Assembly (NCBI RefSeq): GCF_037042905.1
Contig: NC_087245.1
Coordinates: forward strand, 8,496,001-8,560,000
Source: Lytechinus pictus
Lineage: Eukaryota
DNA: 64,000 nt
Direction of reading: 5' to 3'
Shown here: piece after piece, positions 7,440-62,187 of the stretch
Numbering within the stretch: the first letter of the stretch is position 1
Layout: each line of letters starts with the position of its first letter
Notes under the pieces: generated by a model
Databases searched by the model: none
What the model was told of the DNA's origin: nothing
Seen by the model: only the letters and a program-made list of their open reading frames with translations
Translations under genes and position numbers: made by a program

Positions 7440-7687
7440 GTTCAATGGTGTGCTTGCTTTGAAATCTGCCTATATCAATGAAAGAAATGAAAGGTCATTT
7501 GACCAAAATTGTCCATGAAGTAACTACGAACTGGTCTATTATTGACTGTCTTGTGAATATTTTGTTACTGTTAAAGTCTTTGGCAACGTTAAAGGGAGTC
7601 AATGTTCCTTTGTGAAATGCATGAACTTTTTATACCCCGGTTTACAAGATACCCGAGGGGGGGTGTATATATATATCTATATATATA

Positions 7688-8103
7688 TATTGTAAAGAAA
7701 TGGATGAAGAGAACAAAGGTAGGCGTAGCTTAAATCAAGGTTCCCCAGAGCTATCTACCCTTTGGTAAAATTGGTGATGCCGAAAAAATGTCTCTGCCGG
7801 GAATCGAACCCGGGCCCCCAGCTTTGAACGCCGGTGCCTTAACCACTAGACCACAGAGACGGGTTAGTGGCTAGGGCGACCCCGATCCGATTGACCGTCA
7901 GATAGACAGATTTTCGACACCACACCAAGTATAATTTCCTTTGTCGGGTGAAGGTGGGTTTTGAACAATGACAAGCCGCCATGCTCTGGGGAACCTTGAT
8001 TTAAGCTACGCCTACCTTTGTTCTCTTCATCCATTTCTTTACAATATTTAAATAAAAAAGAGTTGCCAAAAGCTGTTGTACATGTATAACTTTACACATT
8101 TGT
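7688..8103 (-). mobile_element. tRNA(UCA)-containing retroposed repeat, single copy with an inverted segment, bounded by (TA)n
   Basis: 7688-7983 is the reverse complement of the 419-bp unit seen at 10855-11787; 7984-8103 is part of the same unit in forward orientation. Confidence 0.8.
7789..7860 (-). tRNA. 72-nt tRNA-like gene, anticodon UCA (opal-suppressor-like), body similar to tRNA-Glu
   Basis: Reverse complement identical to the copies at 11196 and 11615; followed by T6 on its own strand. Confidence 0.75.
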
Positions 8104-8126
8104 ATATATATATATATATATATATA

Positions 8127-8169
8127 TAGTTGCTGATGAACCCTCAGGGGGAAACAGTCTGTACAACTA
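8127..8169 (+). ncRNA. Minimal type I hammerhead ribozyme (Penelope-like-element type)
   Basis: Stem I TAGTTG/CAACTA, core CTGATGA (8133-8139), stem II CCC-TCA-GGG, GAAA (8151-8154), stem III CAG-T-CTG, cleavage triplet GTA ending at 8163. Confidence 0.75.
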
Positions 8170-8277
8170 AAATCTAAGCAACTCGCTCCACCCTATTACT
8201 ATACTACATGAAGCTCCTATATGTACATGTAGTTGAGCACTTTTCAGTAACTGCAGTTTCGTATAGTCATTATATAA

Positions 8278-9181: not shown

Positions 9182-10851
9182 AGGCTTCAGGAAGCAAGGT
9201 ATCCCCCTCTACCATCAAGTGGGTCCTCCATGATCATGGACTGAGAGGCTGCAGAGCGAGAAAGAAGCCTCTACTCCAGGACCGACACCGTAAAGCCAGA
9301 ATGAAGTATGCTAATGAAAACTTCTGGCAAAACGTACTTTGGTCAGATGAAACCAAGATTGAGCTCTTTTGGGCATAACGACCAACGGTATGTGTGGCGT
9401 AAACAAGGAGAAGCTTTCAATCCCAACAATACAGTGCCGACTGTAAAACATGGCGGTGGCAGCAGTGTTGTGGGGATGCTTTGCAGCAAGTGGTACTGGT
9501 TCACTCCAGAAGATTGACGGCACCATGAAGAAAGAGGACTACCTGAAAATTCTTCAGCTAAATCTGAAAACGTCCGCTAAGAACCTCAATCTTAGTAAGA
9601 ATTTGGTCTTCCAACATGACAATGACCCGAAGCAGTCATCAAAAGTTGTATCGGAGTGGCTGAAGAAGACCAAAGTGAGCCGGTGATGGAGTGGCCGTCA
9701 CAGAGTCCAGACCTGAACCCTATTGAGAACCTATGGACAAAGGCTTCAGGAAGCAAGGTATCCCCCTCTACCATCAAGTGGGTCCTCCATGATCATGGAC
9801 TGAGAGGCTGCAGAGCGAGGAAGAAGCCTCTACTCCAGGACCGACACCGTAAAGCCAGAATGAAGTATGCTAATGAAAACTTCTGGCAAAACGTACTTTG
9901 GTCAGATGAAACCAAGATTGAGCTCTTTTGGGCATAACGACCAACGGTATGTGTGGCGTAAACAAGGAGAAGCTTTCAATCCCAACAATACAGTGCCGAC
10001 TGTAAAACATGGCGGTGGCAGCAGTGTTGTGGGGATGCTTTGCAGCAAGTGGTACTGGTTCACTCCAGAAGATTGACGGCACCATGAAGAAAGAGGACTA
10101 CCTGAAAATTCTTCAGCTAAATCTGAAAACGTCCGCTAAGAACCTCAATCTTAGTAAGAATTTGGTCTTCCAACATGACAATGACCCGAAGCAGTCATCA
10201 AAAGTTGTATCGGAGTGGCTGAAGAAGACCAAAGTGAGCCGGTGATGGAGTGGCCGTCACAGAGTCCAGACCTGAACCCTATTGAGAACCTATGGACAAA
10301 GGCTTCAGGAAGCAAGGTATCCCCCTCTACCATCAAGTGGGTCCTCCATGATCATGGACTGAGAGGCTGCAGAGCGAGGAAGAAGCCTCTACTCCAGGAC
10401 CGACACCGTAAAGCCAGAATGAAGTATGCTAATGAAAACTTCTGGCAAAACGTACTTTGGTCAGATGAAACCAAGATTGAGCTCTTTTGGGCATAACGAC
10501 CAACGGTATGTGTGGCGTAAACAAGGAGAAGCTTTCAATCCCAACAATACAGTGCCGACTGTAAAACATGGCGGTGGCAGCAGTGTTGTGGGGATGCTTT
10601 GCAGCAAGTGGTACTGGTTCACTCCAGAAGATTGACGGCACCATGAAGAAAGAGGACTACCTGAAAATTCTTCAGCTAAATCTGAAAACGTCCGCTAAGA
10701 ACCTCAATCTTAGTAAGAATTTGGTCTTCCAACATGACAATGACCCGAAGCAGTCATCAAAAGTTGTATCGGAGTGGCTGAAGAAGACCAAAGTGAGCCG
10801 GTGATGGAGTGGCCGTCACAGAGTCCAGACCTGAACCCTATTGAGAACCTA
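9182..10851 (+). repeat. Three near-identical tandem copies of a 559-bp segment of the Tc1 transposase
   Basis: Units start AGGCTTCAGGAAGC at 9182, 9741 and 10300; the ORF track repeats with period 559. Confidence 0.95.
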
Positions 10852-11195
10852 AGTAGACATTTTTTCGGCATCACCAATTTTTCCAAAGGGTAGATAGCTC
10901 TGGGGAACTTTGATTTAAGCTACGCCTACCTTTGTTCTCTTCATCCATTTCTTTACAATATTTAAATAAAAAAGAGTTGCCAAAAGCTGTTGTACATGTA
11001 TAACTTTACACATTTGTATTTCTTCTCCCATACGTGTACTGTATCGAAGCAATAGCTTTGATCCAGCTGAGGCATGGCGGCTTGTCATTGTTCAAAACCC
11101 ATCTTCACCCGACAAAGGAAATTATAATTGGCATGGTGTCGAAAATCTGCCTATCTGACGGTCAATCGGATCGGGGTCGCCCTAGCCACTAACCC

Positions 11196-11267
11196 GTCTC
11201 TGTGGTCTAGTGGTTAAGGCACCGGCGTTCAAAGCTGGGGGCCCGGGTTCGATTCCCGGCAGAGACA
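11196..11267 (+). tRNA. 72-nt tRNA-like gene, anticodon UCA (11229-11231)
   Basis: Acceptor GTCTCTG/CAGAGAC+A, D arm GTCT/AGGC, anticodon arm CCGGC-GTTCAAA-GCTGG, T arm CCGGG-TTCGATT-CCCGG; A and B boxes intact; TTTTTT at 11268-11273. Confidence 0.75.
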
Positions 11268-11614
11268 TTTTTTCGGCATCACCAATTTTTCCAAAGGGTA
11301 GATAGCTCTGGGAGTCTGGGGAACTTTGATTTAAGCTACGCCTACCTTTGTTTCGATCTTCATCCATTTCTTTACAATATTTAAATAAAAAAGAGTTGCC
11401 AAAAGCTGTTGTACATGTATAACTTTACACATTTTTATTTCTTCTCCCATACGTGTACTGTATCGAAGCAATAGCTTTGATCCAGCTGAGGCATGGCGGC
11501 TTGTCATTGTTCAAAACCCACCTTCACCCGACAAAGGAAATTATAATTGGCATGGTGTCGAAAATCTGCCTATCTGACGGTCAATCGGATCGGGGTCGCC
11601 CTAGCCACTAACCC

Positions 11615-11686
11615 GTCTCTGTGGTCTAGTGGTTAAGGCACCGGCGTTCAAAGCTGGGGGCCCGGGTTCGATTCCCGGCAGAGACA
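11615..11686 (+). tRNA. 72-nt tRNA-like gene, anticodon UCA, second tandem copy
   Basis: Identical to 11196-11267, 419 bp downstream; followed by T6. Confidence 0.75.
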
Positions 11687-11781
11687 TTTTTTCGGCATCA
11701 CCAATTTTTCCAAAGGGTAGATAGCTCTGGGGAACTTTGATTTAAGCTACGCCTACCTTTGTTCTCTTCATCCATTTCTTT

Positions 11782-11836
<55 letters not shown>

Positions 11837-11989
11837 AGAACCTATGGACAAAACTAAAAAAGTGTAAAGGAAACCAAGGATTGTGACTCAATAAAAATTG
11901 TATGCCATCTGCCAAGAGGAGTGGTAAAAAATCACAGGGGAGGTCTGCAAGAAGCTAGTATCCAGTATCAAGTATATATATATATATGT

Positions 11990-12088
11990 GTGTGTAAAGT
12001 TATACATGTACAACAGCATTGGCAACTCATTTTATTTAAATATTGTAAAGAAATGGATGAAGAGAATGTTCTCTTCATCCATTTCTTT

Positions 12089-12095
<7 letters not shown>
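11990..12095. repeat. Inverted remnant of the tRNA(UCA) element's terminal region between (TA)n tracts
   Basis: Reverse-complement segment TGTGTAAAG...GATGAAGAGAA joined to forward TTCTCTTCATCCATTTCTTTACAATA. Confidence 0.75.
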
Positions 12096-12137
<42 letters not shown>

Positions 12138-12387: not shown

Positions 12388-14854
12388 TTCTCCAGGTTCA
12401 TAAATGCATGTAGACCTATACTTTAACCTGATCGCTTTAGTTTAAAGCCCGGCCCGGGCTGAAAAGGCGCTCTATATTATGTTTATTACAAGGTTTTTTG
12501 TTTCTCAATGCGCTGATCAGGAAAAATTCCATCACCATGTGAATAGTACACCTATATCCTACCACGAGGTGTATATAAATATAATCAAGGATAGACTTTG
12601 GACCCAACATGTAGTACTAAACGCTTCAAACCCCATTATATCGAGAGTATAGGCGTCCCGGGTATATAGGCGTATATAGTTTTCAAATAACGTGCATCTT
12701 TCGTTTTTGTAGTTCGTTCATTATTAGTTTCGGTCAGCGGCGTAACTACGGGGGGGGGGGGGGCATTGGGGGGCACGTCCCCCCCCCCCCTCCCCATCGG
12801 CTGGCAAAAAACGGAGAAAATTGAGAAAAATAGGGAGAAAGGAAGATATAAAGCGTAGTGGGAAAGAAGAAATCGCTGTGCATTATAATGTTATATTATT
12901 ATGTTATGTTATATTACATAAGAAATATTTCTTTCATAACTTTATGAAAATAATTTGCTCAGAACCTATGTGTTCATCATTTCTGGTGCTCGCATTGTCT
13001 GTTTAACGAGATCCGGTTGTACTAAAACATCCTGTTTTCAAGTCAATATACACCAAATATATTTCCTCGCACTTCGAGTTATATACTATATGCCTCTTTT
13101 TCATGACTACTTAAAGTGATTGTCCCATTTTAAGGTCTGCATTTCCTGTCCGTGCTTACTCTCGAATTAGTGGGTTGGTGAGATATGTCTGCTCTTCATG
13201 AATTCCTAAAATCAGGCCTTATATTACAAGTTCACCCCAACAAAAAGTTGATTTGAATAAAACGAGAAAAATCCAACAAGCATAATATTAATACATAAAG
13301 CTATGTATACTCTGTAAATATTATATTCGACAGTTAAAACTGTCTGTATCGCCATTTTATTTAGAAAATATGGGTGGAATCAGAAGGCTTGAGACAAATT
13401 TGTAACCATTATAAAGGTAATGAAGTCATTTTGATAACAAAACATAGGCCTATGTGTTTTCGAGGATTTCCTTTCTATATATATCGAAAGGTATGTTCAG
13501 ATTAAAACATATTGCAGAAAAGGATATAGTGAATTGCAGATGCACATTTCAAAAGCAAAGGTCTCAATTTATGGAATATTATACAGATAAAACATCTATT
13601 TGAAAAAATTCCACCCGTTTGGAAAAGGCAAATGCATTTCAAAGAATAAAATAAAAGGGAAATAGATGTGGAAGAAATGTTTTTCATTGTTTCGGACAAA
13701 ATGTTCCATGTAAGTGAACTCGTCTCAAAAAGATTATATAGAACTATTCTCAATTCCAAGTCACGCCTATAGTTAACAATAAGTCACGCCTGTAGTTAAC
13801 TGGTTAAAAATTTTGTTTAGTTTTTCTGTTAGAGATATTGAAAACATTTTTCTGAGGCCAAGAAAATGTACTTCGAATAGTAAGCTGAGGGAATTTCAAT
13901 TCAAATTGTTACACGGGATTATTTACATGAATCGGGATTTATTTCGTTTTGGCATGGTTTTCACGGATCTATACTAATTTTGTAAAAAAAAAGAGAAACA
14001 TACCGTCACTTATTTTACGATTGTGTACATAGTCGTGGAGGGCATGTAATGACGCTCTTAACTTACCCTGTTTTAAGGAACTGGACAGGAAAGGAATACT
14101 TTTGGTTCACCTTTGGGTGATATAGGGAAGACGTATTTATTAAATCACGTAATTCTGTTTGTTAAATATATATTCATTTCAATCCCAAAGAAAAATATAC
14201 CTCCTTATATAGTCAAGAAGTCCAAGAAGTCAAATAAATTTTAGTAAGAAATCAAATTGAGGAAAAAATGATAGCACTGGATCTTTACATCTCAAAAAGT
14301 AGGAAGATTTTGATTCCGAATGAAGGGCAGATTTTTTAAATTTCTTTTCTCTTCTTCTCTCTCCCCTCCATAAGTTGTATATGCTTAGGGAAGAGGGGAA
14401 TATAGGTTTCTGTTGTGTCATTTGTTTTTTGCAGATTCTATATTTTTTTCCTTCTTCTTCTGCAAGTTCCTTATGCACTTTGCGGGGGCTTGCCTGGGTC
14501 ATGAGGCCGGTATATAGGGAGGGGGGCGTACTGATGGGGTCGGGGAATGGGGAGGGCGGGGCGGGATGGGAGGGGACCTGGGCCCGTATTCCATAAACGA
14601 GATAATAAGCATGATTAAGTCAACAATCTAAGCATTTTGTCTTAATTATTTTCTGTCTACGACAAATTTCTTAGCCAAAACGCGTATTCCATATAGAATC
14701 GGCTAAGAATTTTGTTTTAGAATTTGGCTAAGAGTTTTTGCGCGACTAAGACAGATATAGGATGAATGGCTAAGCAACGTACTTTTCTTAAAACTGCATA
14801 GTCTGTATTCCATATGTATCTCGTATCTTACTAAAACTTGGCAATTCGATCATT

Positions 14855-15490
14855 TTGGCGACCCCGGTCGAACATGAATTTGGCGCCCCGGGTCGAATAT
14901 AAAGTTGGTGCCCAAATCGAACATCAACCCCCCCCCCCCGGTCGAACATCAATTCGGCTCCCCTATAGGTCGAACATCAAAACATCAATTCGGCGCCCCC
15001 TGGCCTAACATCGATTCGGCGCCTTCTAAGTTGAACATCAATTCGGCGCCCCTATGTCGAACATTCTATTCGGCGCCCCCTTGGTCGAACATCAATTCGG
15101 CGCCCCCCTCCTATATGTCAATATTTTCAGCCGCATTTAATTATTTTGGACAGGACATGTATTTCACTATAACCAGGCAATTCGAGCATTCTGGCGCCTC
15201 CGATCGAACATGAATTTGGCGTCCCGGTCGCTAACTTGAAATTGGCGCCCCAAAGATCGAACATCAATTCGGCGCCCCCGATGTTGAACATCAATCGATT
15301 CGGCGCCCCCTAGTTCGATCATCAATTCGGTGCCCCCTATTTTGAACATCAGTTCGGCGCCCCTAGGTCGAACATAAATTCGGAGCCCCTAGGTCGAACA
15401 TCAATTCGGAGCCCCAGAGTTCGAACACTAATTCGGAGCCCCTATAGGTCGAACATCAATTCGGCGCCTCCCGAGGTTGAACATCAAATT
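14855..15490. repeat. ~28-32-bp minisatellite (GTCGAACATCAATTCGGCGCCCCC)n; further copies at ~17830-17960
   Basis: About 20 degenerate tandem units visible. Confidence 0.9.
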
Positions 15491-15964
15491 CGCCAGGATT
15501 TTATTTTGGAGGGGGCGGTCAATTCACGCGAAGTGCGCTCCCTTGGGGGTGGGTGCAGGGAGAGGGAGTTCCCCCCCCCCGCGCGAAGCGCGAAGCATTC
15601 GTTGTTTCATGAATTAAAATGAAAAGGAGCTGTCTTTCTCTAGTACCTATATCAGCTCCAATTCACTTGAATTTATTGTGATTTTGAACCTTGTTTCCGA
15701 AAGTGATCGTGAACGCACAAAAAAGGACAAAATGGAGGAAATCAAAATAATAATTACCCCGCGCGAAGCGTGGAACCTAAAGTGCCTTATCATTTTTTTT
15801 AAATAAAAGGGCCCGGGGAAAAGGGTATTCTATAAGTAATATTAAATGCTTTCCATATAAAGATCAGATTTGATTACAAACAATTTAGCGACAGTGCATA
15901 CTGATATTTAACTCGCAAAACAGAGGAGAAGAATAATATATATATATATATATTTATATATATT

Positions 15965-36415: not shown

Positions 36416-37986
36416 TTTTGTCTCACCTGCATAGCAGAGTGAGACTGTAGGCGCCGCTTTTCCGACGGCGGCGGCGTCAACACCAAATCTTAACTGAAGG
36501 TTAAAGGACAAGTCCACTCCAGCAAAAAGTTTGTTTGAATAAAAAGAGAAAAATCCAACAAGTATAACACTGAAAATTTCATCAAAATCGGATGTAAAAT
36601 AAGAAAGTTATGATTTTATAAAGTTTCGCTTAATTTCACAAAACAGTTATATGCACATCCTAGTTGGTATGCAAATGAGGGGACTGATGACGTCATCCAC
36701 TCACTATTTCTTTTGTATTTTATTATATGAAATATGAAATATTCTAATTTTCTCCCCATTGTCAAGTGAAACAAGGATTAATTCCTCCCGGAACATGTGG
36801 AATTAGCATTGTTTAGTACTATATGGTTCAGTCAAGTTGGTCCTCATTGTCAAATCTGTGAAAAATGAAATATTGTATAATTCAAACAATAAAAAAAAAA
36901 AAAAAATAGTGAGTGATGGACATCATTGACTGAATGTCACTGAGTTGTGAATATCACTGTTTTGTGATAAATAAGCGAAACTTTAAAATGCCATAACTTT
37001 TTTATTTTACAGCCGATTTTAATAAAATATTCAGCTTTATGCTAGTTTGATTTTTCTCTATTTATTCAAGCAACATTTTTCTGGGGTAGACTTGACCTTT
37101 AAGTTTTTGAAATGACAGCATAACTTAGAAAGTATATGGACCTAGTTCATGAAACTTGATCATAAGGTTAATCAAGTATTACTGAACATCCTGCCTGAGT
37201 TTCAAGTCACATGATCAAGGTCATTTAAGGTCAGTGAACTTTGGCCAAGTTGGGGGTATTTGTTGAATTACCATCATAACTTTGAAATTTTATTGGTCTA
37301 GTACATAAAACTTGGACATAAGAGTAATCAAATATCACTGAACATCCTTTGCGAATTTCAGGTCACATGATCAAGATCAAAGGTCAATGAACTTTGGCCA
37401 TGTTGGGGGTATCTGTTGAATTACCATCATAACTTTGAAAGTCTATGGATCTGATTCATGAAACTTGGACATTAGAGTAATCGAGTATCACTGAACATCC
37501 TGTGCGAGTTTCAGGTCACATGACCAAGGTCGAAGGTCATTTAAGGTCAATGAACTTTGGCCATGTTGGTGGTATTTGTTGAATTACCATCATAACTCTG
37601 TAAGTGTATTGGTCTAGTTCATAAAACTAGGACATGAGAGTAATCAAGTATCACTGAACATCTCATGCGAGTTTCAGGTCACATGACCAAATTCAAAGGT
37701 CATTTAAGGTCATTGAACTTTGGCCATTTTGGAGGTCATTATGAGATTGCTGTCATAACTTTCAAAGTTTATAGATAAAGTGTATAAAATGTTGATATCA
37801 GGGTAATCAAGTATCAATGACAAGTCTTAGGTCAAATGTCATTTATTGTAAATGAACGTAGTATTGTATCATTATATGAATGGTGTTTTTTGTGAATAAT
37901 TATTTCATAGTAGTTTTCAAAGTCAGCACTGCTGCTATATAGAATCACGTGATGCAGGTGAGACTGCCAGAGGCGCTCCACTTGTT
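36416..37986 (+). mobile_element. Helentron-associated (HINE/DINE-1-like) non-autonomous element with internal ~140-bp tandem array
   Basis: T-rich ends, subterminal IRs GTCTCACCTGCAT/ATGCAGGTGAGAC, 5' partial IR GTGAGAC, GGC microsatellite, tandem core repeats. Confidence 0.7.
36505..37098. mobile_element. TTAA-targeting MITE (Kolobok-like) inserted in the HINE-like element
   Basis: TTAA|AGGACAAGTCCACTCCAG...CTGGGGTAGACTTGACCT|TTAA; the sister HINE copy at ~50190 has a single TTAA at this site. Confidence 0.85.
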
Positions 37987-38218: not shown

Positions 38219-41192
38219 CATACATGTACATGTACCTGCCAACCTTTGAAGACTAAAAATAATAATCCTTTTTTACTTCTACCCTGTCATAGAATTGTTT
38301 CAAGTTACACTGCTCTCCATACTCTCTGATGTATTTGCGTACTGCTTGGCCAACAAACAACTCTTCATTTCTTTTCTGATTGCTTTCATCTGTGAACTCT
38401 ACTTCATACACTTTTGAATGAGCAATAACTTCTGGTTTCACAAATCGAACAAGCAGTGACTTCATTTGGTTGCACATAACATTATGCATTACATGAATAC
38501 ATGGTTTATCTTTCTGAAGGATCAGGTTACTGTCATCGTACAAAGAAATGGTATTAAAAAAGAGACAATATAGTTTTGTGTTAGGGTCTGTCATCTTCAC
38601 TACACGCTCAGGTTTTGATTCAACTATTGTAACTTTAGCCCCACCTGCAGGTTGACGTGTTGCAGCGGAAGATCGTTTTGAAGCAGATTTTCCAGTCTCT
38701 TTTGCAGCTGATTTTGCAGTTGGTCTTGTGGAAGATGACTTTCTAAAGAACAGGTTTAATGCTGTAGAAAGACCTGAATTATCCTTACTGGTGCTTGTAG
38801 CAGACTTCAATGGTGTAAATTTAGCAGGACCACTCAAAGTACTAATCTTTGTAGCACACTGGTTGCTAGTTGAGCTAGAAGTTCCCTTCATTGTGCTGGT
38901 TCTTGAGAACTGGATGATGTTGATTTATCATGTACATTTGATGTTCCAGACTTGGTGGTGCTTTGGTTGCAAGTTGAACTAGAAGCAACAAGCAGTGTCT
39001 TCTTGGGAATCTTGTAACATGTACTAGATTTTGCAGAACTTGTTCCTTGGAGTGTTGATCTAGTAGGACCATGTGAACTGCCAGGTTTTACAGCAGGGGT
39101 CACCGATGTGCCTTGCTTGGTAGAGGTAGCCAAACTTGGCGATGATCATACCGACTTGGGTTTTTGTTTCTTTCTTTCTTGTTCCCCTTCTTGTGTGACT
39201 CTCTGTCGTTTTGTCCCACTTGTCTTTTCTCTCTCTCCTTCAAAGAAAGGGATAATCGCATCCCACTGCTCCAGGAGTCTAATGATGCACTGTCCGAGTG
39301 AAAGCCAACGTGTGGACACATGCTTGATGATCTTGTGCTGGGGAAGATTTTTCTTGTCTTGGACGGATTTGAATTCTTGCTTCCTCTTGCTGCTCTTTTC
39401 CAGATGATAATAAATATCGATGAGCAAGTCCTCTACTCTACACAGGTACCCGTTTTGCTGCTTTCTCAGCCGCAAGATGCATCAAATGACAAGGGCAGCC
39501 TACAAGAATGCAAATAGAAAACAAATGAGAATATATTTAAATATTTTCAAATTGGAAAAGAAATATCAAAACTCTGTCCATCACTTAGGCCTTTTTATAT
39601 TATACCAGATCTGCACTGTAGCTGCAAGATATTCAACCAACCATTCCAATAATAAGACAAGCGGAGACTACTATATTTTGACTGCATATTCAAAATTATA
39701 ACAAAGACTATTTGTTTTATTTCTTGTCTTCATTTCATTTTGTATTTATCTTATATTTTATTGGTTGGAAACAGGTTTTCCTCTGGAATGCCCTGAAACT
39801 AAGCTGTGGAAATGAACACCACACACACAAATATGTTTAATGATCAGCACAAGCATTTCTTTCATTTATATCTCGTTTATGTTTTTTTGTATGTTCAGTT
39901 TTGCTCTTAATAACATTAAAGATCTAGACCTACACTACTTTATTTAGTATGGTATTCACAAAGACTCACCAGAAATGTACATAGATGGAGCACGCTTGAG
40001 TAGAAACGCCGCTACACCTTTGAACTTGCCCAACATCACCGACGCATTGTCCGCGGAGAAGGATACCAGATTTTCAAACGGAATTTCCAGTTCCTGTAGT
40101 TCTGCCTCCAAAAGCTTGAATATGTTCTCCCCTGTAGATGGCTTATTACACTCCTTCAACGAGAGAAGAACTGACAAGGTACGACCCTCATCCGGGTCAA
40201 AATACCGCACACATATTGGGTACAACTTGACATCATCATAGTCCGTAGACCCATCCGTTGCCAAACTGAATGGCGATACCTTGATGACATCGACAATTTT
40301 TTTCCTGGAATCTTTACCAAGGGTATTGGTGATGCAGCCTGTCTTTGTGCGCCCACATCCATACTTTTTTGCGATGGCCGAATCGGGAAACATTTTCCGA
40401 AACAGTTTATTACAGTGGTCAGCAACACTGAGTGGCCAACTATGTTCAACAATGAATTCGGTCATCAAAACCTCTGCATTAATTACACTCGTGTCCGAAT
40501 CTACCGTGAAGTAACTGTTTAATGATCTACCACTGGTTGCCTCACTAGTGGCTTGATGCTTTTTTGTCTTGATATGTTTCTCGATGTCATGGAGTCCACC
40601 GTGACTGATGCAGAAATCGCTGGAACAGCATTTGCAAAATGCATAGTGAACTCCCAGTTTGGAGCTTGTCAATACAGGAAACCTCTCGGAGTATTCAGCC
40701 CGATATTTCGGGGTAGATTTCTTGGTAGATTTGCTCATTTTGCCATTTCAGGTGTACTGGTAGCAATCAAAATCATGGGCAAATCAAGGAAATCATTGCT
40801 GCTCCACTGCAAAATATATGTGCTGAACTGAACGCATACAGCAATCACTCGCACGTTTTCACATAACAGTCCCATATGTAGTAATCCACATAGTTTGTAC
40901 GGTAAATTTGCACGCGAAACACACATCGCAAGTATTGCGTCGCATGTAGTCACGTCTACCCACACGTACACACGAACATACGCACGCAATCCCCCCGCTC
41001 GTATTACACTCGCTACAAAACGTTGGAATTACGATTCGGCTGCGTTGTTAGACTTGAAGTCCAGTCGTTGTAGACATTTTATTTTTAATAAAATATCAGA
41101 AAATCTTAATTTTGTGACATAAAATCGTAAGGCGTAATTTAAAACAAAAAAACATAATAATTACGCCGAAATCGTAGGAGTTGGCAGGTATG
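38219..41192 (-). mobile_element. hAT-superfamily transposon with a decayed transposase gene
   Basis: TIR CATACCTGCCAAC at the right end (reverse complement, 41180-41192); the left copy is interrupted by two CATGTA insertions; no clear TSD. Confidence 0.75.
38253..40738 (-). pseudogene. hAT/ZNF862-like transposase pseudogene (exon ~39970-40738, exon from 39499 with frameshifts)
   Basis: N-terminal CxxC...H...H zinc finger, LATDGSTD, SADNASVMLG, spliced GCPCH (CxxH), TRWLS; frameshifts near 39445 and 39150; no C-terminal dimerisation domain seen. Confidence 0.82.
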
Positions 41193-49491: not shown

Positions 49492-50276
49492 AACAAGTGG
49501 AATGCCTCTGGCCGTCTCACCTGCATCACGCGATTCAATATAGCAGCAGTGCTGATTTTGAAAACTACTATAACTCGCACAAGATGTTCAGTGATACTTG
49601 GTTACTATTATGTCCAAGTTTTATGAACTAGACCAACACACTTTCAAATTTATGGCTGTAATTCAACAAATACCCCAATTTGGCCAAAGTTCATTGACCC
49701 TAAATGACCTTTGACCTTGATCATGTGACCTGAAACTTGCACAGGATGCTCAGTAATACTTCATTACTATTATGTCCAAGTTTCATGAATCAGATCCATA
49801 AACTTTCAAAGTTATGATGGTAATTCAACAGATACCCCCAATTCGGCCAAAGTTCATTGACCCTAAATGACCTTTGACCTTGGTCATGTGACGTGAAACT
49901 CATGCAGGATGTTCAGTGATACTTGATTAACCTTATGTATAAGTTTCATGAACTAGGTCCATATATTTTCTAAGTTATGATGACATTTCAAAAACTTAAC
50001 CTTAGGTTAAGATTTTGATGTTGATTCCCCCAACATGGTCTAAGTTCATTGACCCTAAATGACCTTTGACCTTGGTCATGTGACATGAAACTCAGGCAGG
50101 ATGTTCAGTAATACTTGATTAACCTTATGGCCAAGTTTCATGAACTAGGTCCATATACTTTCTAAGTTATGCTGTCATTTCAAAAACTTAACCTAAGGTT
50201 AAGATTTGGTGTTGACGCCGCCGCCGTCGGAAAAGCGGCGCCTATAGTCTCACTCTGCTATGCAGGTGAGACAAAA
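49492..50276 (-). mobile_element. HINE-like element, complete copy in a NAPRT intron
   Basis: Reverse complement of the 36416-37986 family with both ends present. Confidence 0.75.
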
Positions 50277-60150: not shown

Positions 60151-62187
60151 AACAAGTGGAATGCCTCTGGCGGTCTCACCTGCATCACGCGATTCAATAT
60201 AGCAGCAGTGCTGACTTTGAAAAACTACTATAAAATAATTATTCAATACAATACTACGTTCATTGACATTTGACCTTGATCATGTGACCTAAAACTTGTC
60301 AGTGATACTTGATTACATTTACCCCTATATCCACATTTTATACACTATATCTATAAACTTTAAAAGTTATGACAGCAATCTAATAATTACCTCTAAAATG
60401 CCCAAAGTTCAATGACCTTTGACTTTGATCCTGTGAAACTCGCACAGGATGTTCAGTGATACTTGATTACTCTTATGTCCAAGTTTCTTGAGTCAGATCC
60501 ATAAACTTTCAAAGTTATGATGGTAATTCAACAGATACCCCCATTATGGCCAAATTTCATTGACCTTTGACCTTGGTCATGTGACCTGAAATGCGCACAG
60601 GATGTTCAGTGATACTTGATTACTCTTATGTCCAAGTTTTATGAACTAAATCTATATATTTTCTAAGTTATGATGACAATTCAAAAACTTAACCTTAGGT
60701 TAAGATTTTGATATTGATTCCCCCAACATGGTCTAAGTTCATTGACCCCAAATGACCTTTGACCTTGGTCATGAGACCTGAAACTCAGGCAGAATGTTCA
60801 GTAATACTTGATTAACCTTATGGCCAAGTTTCATGAACTAGGTCCATATACTTTCTATGTAATGCTGTCATTTCAAAAACTTAACCTTCGGTTAAGATTT
60901 GGTGTTGACGCCGCCGCCGTCGGAAAAGCGACGCCTATATCAATAAGTGGAATGCCTCTGGCGGTCTCACCTGCATCACACGATTCAATATAGCAGCAGT
61001 GCTGACTTTGAAAAACAAACTTTTAATGATTATTCACAAAAAACACCATTCATTGATACAATACTACATTCATTGACATTAGACCTTGATAATGTGACCT
61101 AAAACTTGTCAGTGATACTTGATTACCCCTACATGTATATCCACATTTTATACACTATATATCTATAAACTTTGAAAGTTATGACAGCAATCTAATAATT
61201 ATCTCTAAAATGGCCAATGACCTTAAATGACCTTTGACTTTGGTCATGTGACCTGAAACTCGCATGAGATGTTCAGTGATACTTGACGACTCTTATGCCC
61301 AATTTCTATGAACTAGACCAATATACTTAAAGAGTTATGATGGTAATTCAACAAATACCCCCAACATGGCCAATATCCACTGACCTTTAACCTTGGTCAT
61401 GTGACCTGAAACTCGCACAAGATGTTCAGTGATACTTGGTTATTCTTATGTCCACGTTTTATGATCTAGACCAATACACTTACAGAGATATGATGGTAAA
61501 ATTCAACAACAAAAAAACATGGCCAAAGTTCATTGACCTTACATGACCTTTGACCTTGATCATGTGACCTGAAACTCGCACAGGATGTTCAGTGATAATT
61601 GATTACTCTTATGTCCAAGTTTCATGAGTAAGATCCATAAACTTTCAACGTTAAGATGGTAATTCAACAGATACCCCCATTATGGCCAAAGTTCATTGAC
61701 CTTTGACCTAGGTCATGTGACCTGAAATGCGCACATGATGTTCAGTGATACTTGATTACTCTTATGTCCAAGTTTCATGAGTAAGATCCATAAACTTTCA
61801 AAGTTACATGTATGATGGTAATTCAACAGATACCCCCATTATGGCCAAAGTTCATTGACCTTTGACCTAGGTCATGTGACCTGAAATGCGCACATGATGT
61901 TCAGTAATACTTGATTACTCTTATGTCCAAGTTTCATGAGTAAGATCCATAAACTTTCAAAGTTATGATGGTAATTCAACAAATACCCCCAATTTGGCCA
62001 AAGTTCATTGACCCTAAATGACCTTTGACCTTAATCATGTGACGTTAAACTCATGCAAAAAGTTCAGTAATACTTGATTAACCTTATGGCCAAGTTTCAT
62101 GAACTAGGTCCATATACTTTCTAAGTTATGCTGTCATTTCAAAAACTTAACCTTTGGTTAAGATTTGGTGTTGACGCCGCCGCCGTC
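60151..62187 (-). mobile_element. Two head-to-tail HINE-like elements (~60151-60940, ~60941-62187) with expanded core arrays
   Basis: Each begins AA(C/T)AAGTGGAATGCCTCTGGCGGTCTCACCTGCATC and ends near GACGCCGCCGCCGTC on the plus strand. Confidence 0.75.

Follow-up and report, generated by a model that had tools for sequence, protein, structure and literature searches.

An insert within a broken Tc1 transposon in the window, that is, in the 64,000-nucleotide stretch of Lytechinus pictus DNA analyzed here, belongs to a family that our data support as a dispersed, multimeric, non-autonomous element with the insertion marks of Penelope-like elements (PLEs), with an internal tRNA and without a hammerhead. 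The family has a unit of 405–409 bp and more than 2,100 copies, which range from fragments to arrays of 40–400 units, and multimers occur at other loci, so that the dispersed element proposed in the original prediction is borne out over a mere local duplication. As to how the family moves, we favor a tentative reading whose chances we would put a little short of even: a hammerhead-free 408-bp tRNA repeat is mobilized by a Neptune-type PLE, one monomer is re-read, and the TA tail is written by the reverse transcriptase.

Layout of the Insert and Its Empty Sites

The insert consists of 2.26 units together with a 13-bp target-site duplication and a TA run (Table 1). The original prediction had described about 2.2 tandem units between 13-bp duplications, beginning in the last 5 nt of a tRNA copy, and both statements agree with the coordinates found. 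Its unit length of about 419 bp is correct for unit 2, which differs from unit 1 by three substitutions and by insertions of 8 nt and 3 nt, but not for the family; the partial unit 3 shows no differences from unit 1. The Tc1 coding sequence that the insert was said to interrupt does surround it, but this Tc1, identified as such by its Pfam transposase domains, was already broken, and a 559-bp internal piece of it stands in three head-to-tail copies that are 100% identical over 300 nt.

Table 1. Features of the insert, its host and two further insertions (positions in the window)
Feature	Position	Strand	Remark
Host, three tandem copies of the 559-bp piece of broken Tc1	9182 to about 10851–10858	+	
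Left target-site duplication TATTGAGAACCTA	10839–10851		TA at both its start and its end
5′ junction, three untemplated bases	10852–10854	+	read from the sequence
Unit 1, 408 bp	10855–11262	+	starts with last 5 nt of tRNA
Unit 2, 419 bp	11263–11681	+	
Unit 3, partial, 106 nt	11682–11787	+	ends at short (S) 3′ end, unit position 106
22 TA units in neither element nor empty site	11788–11831		
Right target-site duplication	11832–11844		Tc1 sequence resumes after it
tRNA-shaped gene, copy 1, 72 nt, anticodon UCA	11196–11267	+	
tRNA-shaped gene, copy 2	11615–11686	+	
T6 run, putative Pol III terminator	11268–11273; second 11687–11692	+	directly after tRNA
tRNA antisense	11145–11195; second 11564–11614	+	D arm, T arm and 3′ acceptor strand, without anticodon arm
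AUAU(U) motif at S end	10958–10962 (unit 104–108)	+	putative priming and slippage site
ACACA...TAT motif at long (L) end	11008–11019 (unit 154–165)	+	end used by other copies
Separate head-to-head insertion, same 408-bp family	7680–8105	−/+	7680–7984 minus, S end; 7983–8105 plus, L end
tRNA within minus arm of the 7680–8105 insertion	7789–7860	−	
Separate short head-to-head insertion	11991–12102	−/+	minus 11991–12066, L end and CA run; plus 12067–12102, S end and TA run

The 13-mer occurs singly, followed by TGGAC and without a TA run, in both upstream tandem Tc1 pieces (positions 9721 and 10280), and the same holds for all three other Tc1 copies found in the genome. Since these five empty sites hold one 13-mer each, the duplication is real, and since they lack a TA run, 22–23 TA units derive from neither the element nor the target and arose with the insertion. 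The proposed tie between the (TA)n tail and the insertion is thereby supported at this site. In the whole run (11786–11833, 24 units) one unit belongs to the element and one to the duplication. Both marks are visible because this copy landed outside a TA repeat. Most family copies are flanked by TA runs on both sides and show no visible duplication; a non-simple repeat of at least 7 nt across the site was present in 4 of 93 insertions (null, 16 of 1,286), and a duplication of more than 8 nt in one of the 93, the window copy itself. Long target duplications as a family trait, as the original prediction had it, are thus not visible in other copies. The 13-mer has TA at either end, so that within a TA run no trace would be visible of a staggered cut made at two TA sites. 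Read from the empty site, the stagger at the window site appears to be 13 bp, from TA to TA.

Elsewhere the window contains a degenerate 25–27-bp tandem repeat in two blocks (14849–15492), a tandem repeat family of 153–163 bp (37119–37820, 49572–50215, and 60349–62128), minus-strand frames of 223 and 263 aa that by eye resemble pieces of a hAT-type transposase (38253–40747), as well as proC-like and NAPRT-like exons.

Copies, Ends and Arrays of the Family

Two exact 19-mers from the family gave 2,137 and 2,151 matches genome-wide, whereas controls gave none. The genome search yielded 973 candidates, of which 36 were scored. Loci were drawn in three samples: sample A comprises 31 loci from the best matches, is biased to long copies and leaves out the long arrays as well as two loci whose flanks duplicate another locus; samples B and C were chosen by position, B with 51 loci among the matches of the tRNA pattern and C with 16 loci among those of the post-tRNA pattern. 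Altogether 162 arms of at least 45 nt were counted at 98 loci. This genome-wide tabulation of units, ends and duplications, which had been suggested as a check, gave, besides the single long duplication, 5′ ends that vary over the whole unit and two fixed 3′ ends, S and L, about 55 nt apart. The 3′ end falls in S (unit 100–114) or L (unit 148–170) in 140 of the 162 arms, and in 127 of these 140 a microsatellite follows directly. More than one unit is spanned by 35/53 arms in sample A, 21/88 in B, and 3/21 in C. The layout has the traits of non-autonomous PLEs: 5′ truncation with partial tandems, an inverted 5′-truncated copy (56 head-to-head pairs in 51 of the 98 loci), and an optional tail from two internal start sites, seen as the S and L ends; both ends could be assigned to a class in 39 pairs, and 34 of these join one S with one L end. 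A metagenome search for the unit gave no matches, and no look-alike was found in the other genomes scanned. A query with the tRNA DNA, in a search that passes over common words, likewise yielded no candidates.

An ordinary tRNA-headed SINE, or the 3′ end of a LINE, moved by a LINE and occasionally in tandem, would go well with the intact A and B boxes, the simple-repeat tail and the 13-bp duplication of the window copy. However, the tRNA sits inside the unit with T6 behind it, it is not where copies begin (one of 158 5′ ends lies at unit 340–344, the tRNA +1), 24 of the 109 arms in samples B and C exceed one unit, and head-to-head arms are common. SINEs are defined in SINEBase (PMC3531059), as far as its available text goes, by a tRNA-derived 5′ head, interspersed non-tandem copies and Pol III transcription; the unit has neither the head nor the non-tandem arrangement, given its arrays and multi-unit arms, and is not a SINE by these features. 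The start distribution refutes this explanation unless a LINE with the same 3′ end exists, and we consider it highly improbable. A different, degenerate tRNA-like head with a body, at about position 1318 of locus L124, is likely an ordinary SINE.

The long arrays are a palindrome with arms of about 17 kb (C17), an array of about 18 kb (C2) and one of about 172 kb (C28), which was sampled in eight stretches; that three array arms are all close to 17 kb may be an effect of read length, and this agreement was not used as evidence. The C17 palindrome (G000:C17:10087315-10121384) spans 34 kb and about 84 units, its left arm ending in L and its right arm in S, and a short PLE-end piece lies just beyond the right TA run. 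The C28 locus (G000:C28:784977-957414) is an apparent array of about 425 units without terminal TA runs, in which 58 distinct sequences were present among 112 sampled units; it is possibly a source locus. Arrays of about 42 units (17–18 kb), the part-sampled one of about 172 kb and the later variants shared inside arrays are what one would expect of a DNA satellite that never passes through RNA and spreads by unequal crossover and by DNA circles outside the chromosome. Against this stand the polarity of the insertions, their two fixed 3′ ends next to 5′ ends that vary, the head-to-head S and L arms and the staggered duplication with its new tail, all of which matches autonomous PLEs, as well as the clustering of 5′ ends in the T loop (14 of 158, unit 392–402). 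A DNA-only route is largely refuted for dispersal and stands for array growth; as an account of the family it is very improbable.

Several loci record further insertions. At L084, L094, and L113/L158 an element with CACAGTG ends, which we take to be Transib-like, has inserted three times independently at tRNA positions 28–32, each time at the same 5-bp site in the anticodon stem, which was duplicated. L084 had been considered as a chimera of element and PLE produced by template switching, but this was rejected, its 5′ edge being the insertion site of another element. At L013, L050, L148, L151, and L160 a single TA run separates the element from the end of a PLE, the PLE family differing between loci; elements thus pile into each other's tails.

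Origin of the TA and CA Tails

S ends run into TA in 48 of 52 cases. Of 30 arms with their end in the CA motif, 16 have at least four CA units, whereas the template has two to three. The repeat that adjoins the element thus matches the local template, TA after S ends and CA after the CA motif. A test of 138 flanks gave four more loci at which the run is followed by the interior of a repeat, other copies of that repeat being free of the run; these loci match on one side only, and two-sided evidence for a new tail comes from one locus. It is likely that the TA run of the window copy was written at insertion by the copying enzyme, a reverse transcriptase. Growth by slippage after insertion from a two-unit seed is unlikely on general grounds. 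The tails in a mosquito SINE study were reportedly made by slippage. Microsatellites next to PLEs have been described, in the text available to us, as targets and not as insertion products (Craig et al., 2021, PMC8557442).

Penelope-Like Elements as Putative Helpers

GIY-YIG frames gave 142 matches in the genome, 70 of which were fetched; most of these 70 loci have a C-terminal endonuclease with a CX2-5CxxC motif, which is given for Neptune and Nematis PLEs in the accessible part of Craig et al. (2021, PMC8557442). The assignment of the genome's PLEs to this clade was made from domain order and this motif, not from a tree. Two whole autonomous insertions (L251 and L252) encode RT and GIY-YIG in frames of 954 and 982 aa, and both share the layout of the unit, namely head-to-head arms with one short and one long end within TA runs; their ends lie 86/142 and 73/109 nt after a hammerhead. 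According to the parts of Frangieh et al. (PMC11167929) at hand, both strands are cut and extended in vitro by a PLE protein, and synthesis begins at two sites within the RNA, which gives an optional tail; hammerhead cleavage is dispensable for insertion in vitro, and unprocessed RNA is the main substrate. An unprocessed multimer may therefore do as a template.

An autonomous RT element that shares the terminus of the unit, as looked for on the suggestion of the original prediction, was not found among the 70 fetched of 142 GIY-YIG loci (at best 65% over 60 nt, E 0.04), nor was homology of the unit to a PLE pseudo-LTR found in the same set. The hammerhead cores CUGANGA and UUGANAA are absent from both strands of the unit dimer, in line with the earlier statement that no clear core is present, and permuted hammerhead orders with that core are thereby excluded as well. 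Rfam reported no ribozyme in the unit, which is a weak test, as the same search missed the hammerhead at 8128–8170. A hammerhead relic was also considered and rejected: there was no profile match, scores where the relic should lie did not exceed those of shuffles, and genome-wide no intact hammerhead lies upstream of the unit's tail motif. As no shared terminus was found and the tests for a relic failed, it is the insertion marks that point to a Neptune-type protein; mobilization by the genome's Neptune-type PLEs is likely. The designation as a retrozyme or Penelope-like element can be kept as regards PLE-type insertion marks and multimers, but the hammerhead of a retrozyme is missing, and its pseudo-LTR homology was not found among the 70 loci.

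Two side observations concern PLE ends. A short motif before the S end seems, by eye only, common to some PLE families, and we make no claim on it. At 8128–8270 the window has a type I hammerhead-like motif (CTGATGA...GAAA with a flanking stem), which adjoins the 7680–8105 copy, is followed by a TA run after about 140 nt and has the look of a terminus from another PLE or retrozyme; it was unreported by Rfam and had no match among 30 PLE loci.

The tRNA Module

The tRNA folds as a canonical 72-nt cloverleaf with 7/5 stems, a 4-nt variable loop and all 21 stem pairs formed, and its best Rfam match is RF00005 (60.9 bits). The A and B boxes are intact by sequence. The original prediction of a unit-internal tRNA with anticodon UCA is correct, and the anticodon is UCA in 88 of 90 loci. 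tRNA-Sec has a long variable arm and extended acceptor/T stems, and the ARAGORN label tRNA-Sec was rejected on stems, loop, length and Rfam match. Compared with four host tRNA types, the sequence is identical to tRNA-Glu(UUC) at 48 of 72 positions and to tRNA-Gly(UCC) at 49 of 72. Relative to tRNA-Glu(UUC), 7 of the 21 pairs are changed on both sides, three on one side, and none is broken; this would indicate a maintained fold only if the ancestor was a gene like tRNA-Glu(UUC).

It might be that the tRNA persists because it functions as a UGA suppressor, serving either the host or a helper element, as the nearly invariant UCA anticodon, the complete cloverleaf and the terminator would suggest. 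G1:C72 and A73 presumably resemble Trp identity elements, which would suit a suppressor, whereas G32, which we take to be unusual, would not. However, the tRNA shows no extra conservation among copies (divergence 0.0185, compared with 0.0197 and 0.0187 in the flanks), and the two young PLE frames have no in-frame stop, so that a suppressor role is hardly probable at all. A selenoprotein or suppressor link to Naiad-type elements was rejected on the same two frames and their C-terminal endonuclease.

RNA Fold, Cleavage and Template

The 51 nt before the tRNA are its antisense minus the anticodon arm, with a duplex energy of −48.3 kcal/mol that 3 of 500 shuffles equaled. As the antisense precedes the tRNA, the monomer is predicted to fold as a rod. 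In the models, the circular plus strand of six representatives folds at −129 to −135 kcal/mol, compared with −99.8 ± 5.2 for 25 shuffles, and the minus strand at −106 to −123, compared with −98.3 ± 5.5 for its shuffles. The tRNA +1 is predicted to lie in the end loop of the rod. A cloverleaf is predicted only with the antisense absent or already used and would be masked in read-through or leader RNA; in a modeled tRNA-spacer-tRNA transcript, forcing the cloverleaf costs 4 kcal/mol on the second copy and 6 on the first. No compensatory change was found among 13 variable paired columns of the rod.

The tRNA had also been proposed as an RNase P/Z cut site. This is not reflected in the 5′ ends, which do not pile up at the tRNA edges: next to the single one at the tRNA +1, one of 158 lies at the tRNA end (unit 5–7), and the cloverleaf is predicted to be masked. 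RNase P and RNase Z leave ends that RtcB cannot join. The cluster of 5′ ends in the T loop fits either a modified A58 or the strongest helix of the rod; a stop at m1A58 (7 of 158 5′ ends at unit 398–400) was not retained, being ambiguous, as the site was chosen post hoc and the strongest rod helix starts there. The proposed multimeric, continuous template is corroborated by arms that run through the tRNA and past one unit; 52 of 93 arms, in a sample chosen for holding the tRNA, extend beyond the tRNA +1.

Units differ by a median of 2.8 changes within a locus (20 loci), compared with 14 between 37 loci. The 49 units sampled from the two C17 arms show no differences, a variant without counterpart in the consensus of the related C28, the nearest array, is common to the 42 C2 units, and private variants common to all units occur in 5 of 15 small multi-unit loci. 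Eight of the 42 C2 units share a later variant, which shows array growth at the DNA level. Near-identical units fit the re-reading of one monomer, but they can equally stem from source arrays that were uniform or from growth in DNA at a later time. In three RNA-seq runs, 1,633, 1,161, and 830 reads per 12.9 million matched the family on both strands, whereby 36–63% of reads continue into unlike sequence and no end pile-up was seen at the tRNA; such libraries are poor at showing a small circle, and tandem and circle give identical junction reads. Variant motifs from the RNA reads were absent from the assembly.

A serious though somewhat doubtful competitor is that a PLE mobilizes unprocessed linear read-through RNA, with the tRNA as passenger or promoter, the rod as an old head-to-head remnant, and the multimers made or homogenized as DNA. 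The lack of 5′ pile-up at the tRNA edges and the arms that pass the tRNA +1 are in keeping with it, as are the homogeneous long arrays as possible sources, the alignment of the unit with its own reverse complement, the RNA-seq reads that carry flanks, and unprocessed RNA as the main in vitro substrate in the available text of PMC11167929. It is opposed by the many distinct haplotypes, each uniform per insertion and across both arms, by the better predicted fold of the plus strand over the minus strand in six of six representatives, by an antisense that lacks exactly the anticodon arm, and by 21 of 21 stem pairs kept even though ten differ from host tRNA-Glu(UUC).

Proposed Course of Insertion

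Our favored reading, movement of the tRNA repeat by a Neptune-type PLE with re-reading of one monomer, can be divided into three steps. The first, nicking of TA sites by a PLE and internal priming, is very probable as a whole: the PLE protein would cut both strands at TA sites 13 bp apart, and priming at unit 104–108 or 154–165 would give the S and L ends, 5′ truncation and head-to-head pairs. The second, addition of repeat units by a 4-nt pairing and slippage, we regard as probable. Here, judging from the sequence, the nicked bottom strand would pair with the RNA at unit 105–108, beside AUAU, such that the nicked end pairs over 4 nt with UAUU, slips on AUAU and adds TA units before entering the element, while slips on ACAC would add CA units; the same cut inside a TA run would hide the duplication.

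The third step, with the tRNA as Pol III start and RNase P cut, the rod and re-reading, is tentative and may be wrong slightly more readily than right. The tRNA would provide a Pol III start, and a transcript leaking through T6 would make the antisense segment, which would zip the first tRNA into the rod and leave the second free for RNase P. An exact monomer could result, whose ends meet in the end loop of the rod and which is closed or re-read several times; afterwards, some arrays would grow at the DNA level. Against such a leak, T6 and T5 runs should stop Pol III. The full picture of a ribozyme-free viroid-like RNA, i.e., a 408-nt monomer defined by Pol III and RNase P, a rod-hidden tRNA, rolling copying by a PLE and telomerase-like writing of (TA)n and (CA)n, is unlikely when taken together, and it would include that many TA microsatellites of the genome are products of PLE insertion as well as targets.

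Relation to Known Elements

Animal non-LTR retrozymes, in the accessible parts of their descriptions, carry a type I hammerhead per unit, are marked by abundant circular RNA and are related to PLE pseudo-LTRs (Cervera and de la Pena, 2020, PMC7229834; for non-LTR retrozymes see also Li, Clavereau and Pollet, 2026, bioRxiv 10.64898/2026.07.22.740005). Like them, the family has non-coding tandem units of a few hundred bases, from monomers or dimers to large multimers of hundreds, with movement by PLEs proposed; unlike them, it lacks the hammerhead and pseudo-LTR kinship and has a tRNA with its antisense. Non-autonomous Chlamys PLEs (MRC1) and Naiad insertions, as presented in the available text of PMC8557442, likewise have no canonical hammerhead, head-to-tail multimers, inverted 5′ copies, an optional tail and microsatellite association. 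That text mentions no tRNA module, and the non-autonomous Chlamys PLEs described there usually resemble an autonomous partner at the 3′ end, whereas the unit has no such partner among 70 loci. The genome's Neptune/Nematis-type PLEs L251 and L252 agree with the unit in head-to-head arms, a short and a long end and outer TA runs, but they encode RT and GIY-YIG, carry a hammerhead 73–155 nt before the end and share no sequence with it. Schistosoma Sm-alpha, as far as described in the parts of PMC2770079 at hand, also has tRNA-derived sequence in a high-copy retroposon, also called satellite DNA, but with an active hammerhead. Helenus/TRIMp3 (Kojima, 2024, PMC10886601, accessible text) resembles the unit in being non-autonomous, in having a tRNA-like Pol III promoter in its interior and in not being a SINE; it is an LTR element with 4–5 bp duplications, whereas the unit has neither two LTRs nor such a duplication and would be its PLE counterpart. 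As the unit has neither the hammerhead of a retrozyme nor the head of a SINE, it is best filed as a non-autonomous PLE.

In our literature searches, with Dfam and Repbase outside their scope, no tRNA-bearing PLE parasite was found. What is new at the window is the empty-site evidence for a 13-bp stagger and a newly made TA run: the window copy is a rare natural experiment, in which a known empty site lets both be read directly. tRNA scanners would count about 2,000 "Sec" or suppressor genes from this family. With this family, the parasites of PLEs include, besides retrozymes with a ribozyme, a form with a tRNA that hammerhead searches miss, and if the enzyme also writes microsatellites, this would amount to a telomerase-like activity of a PLE.
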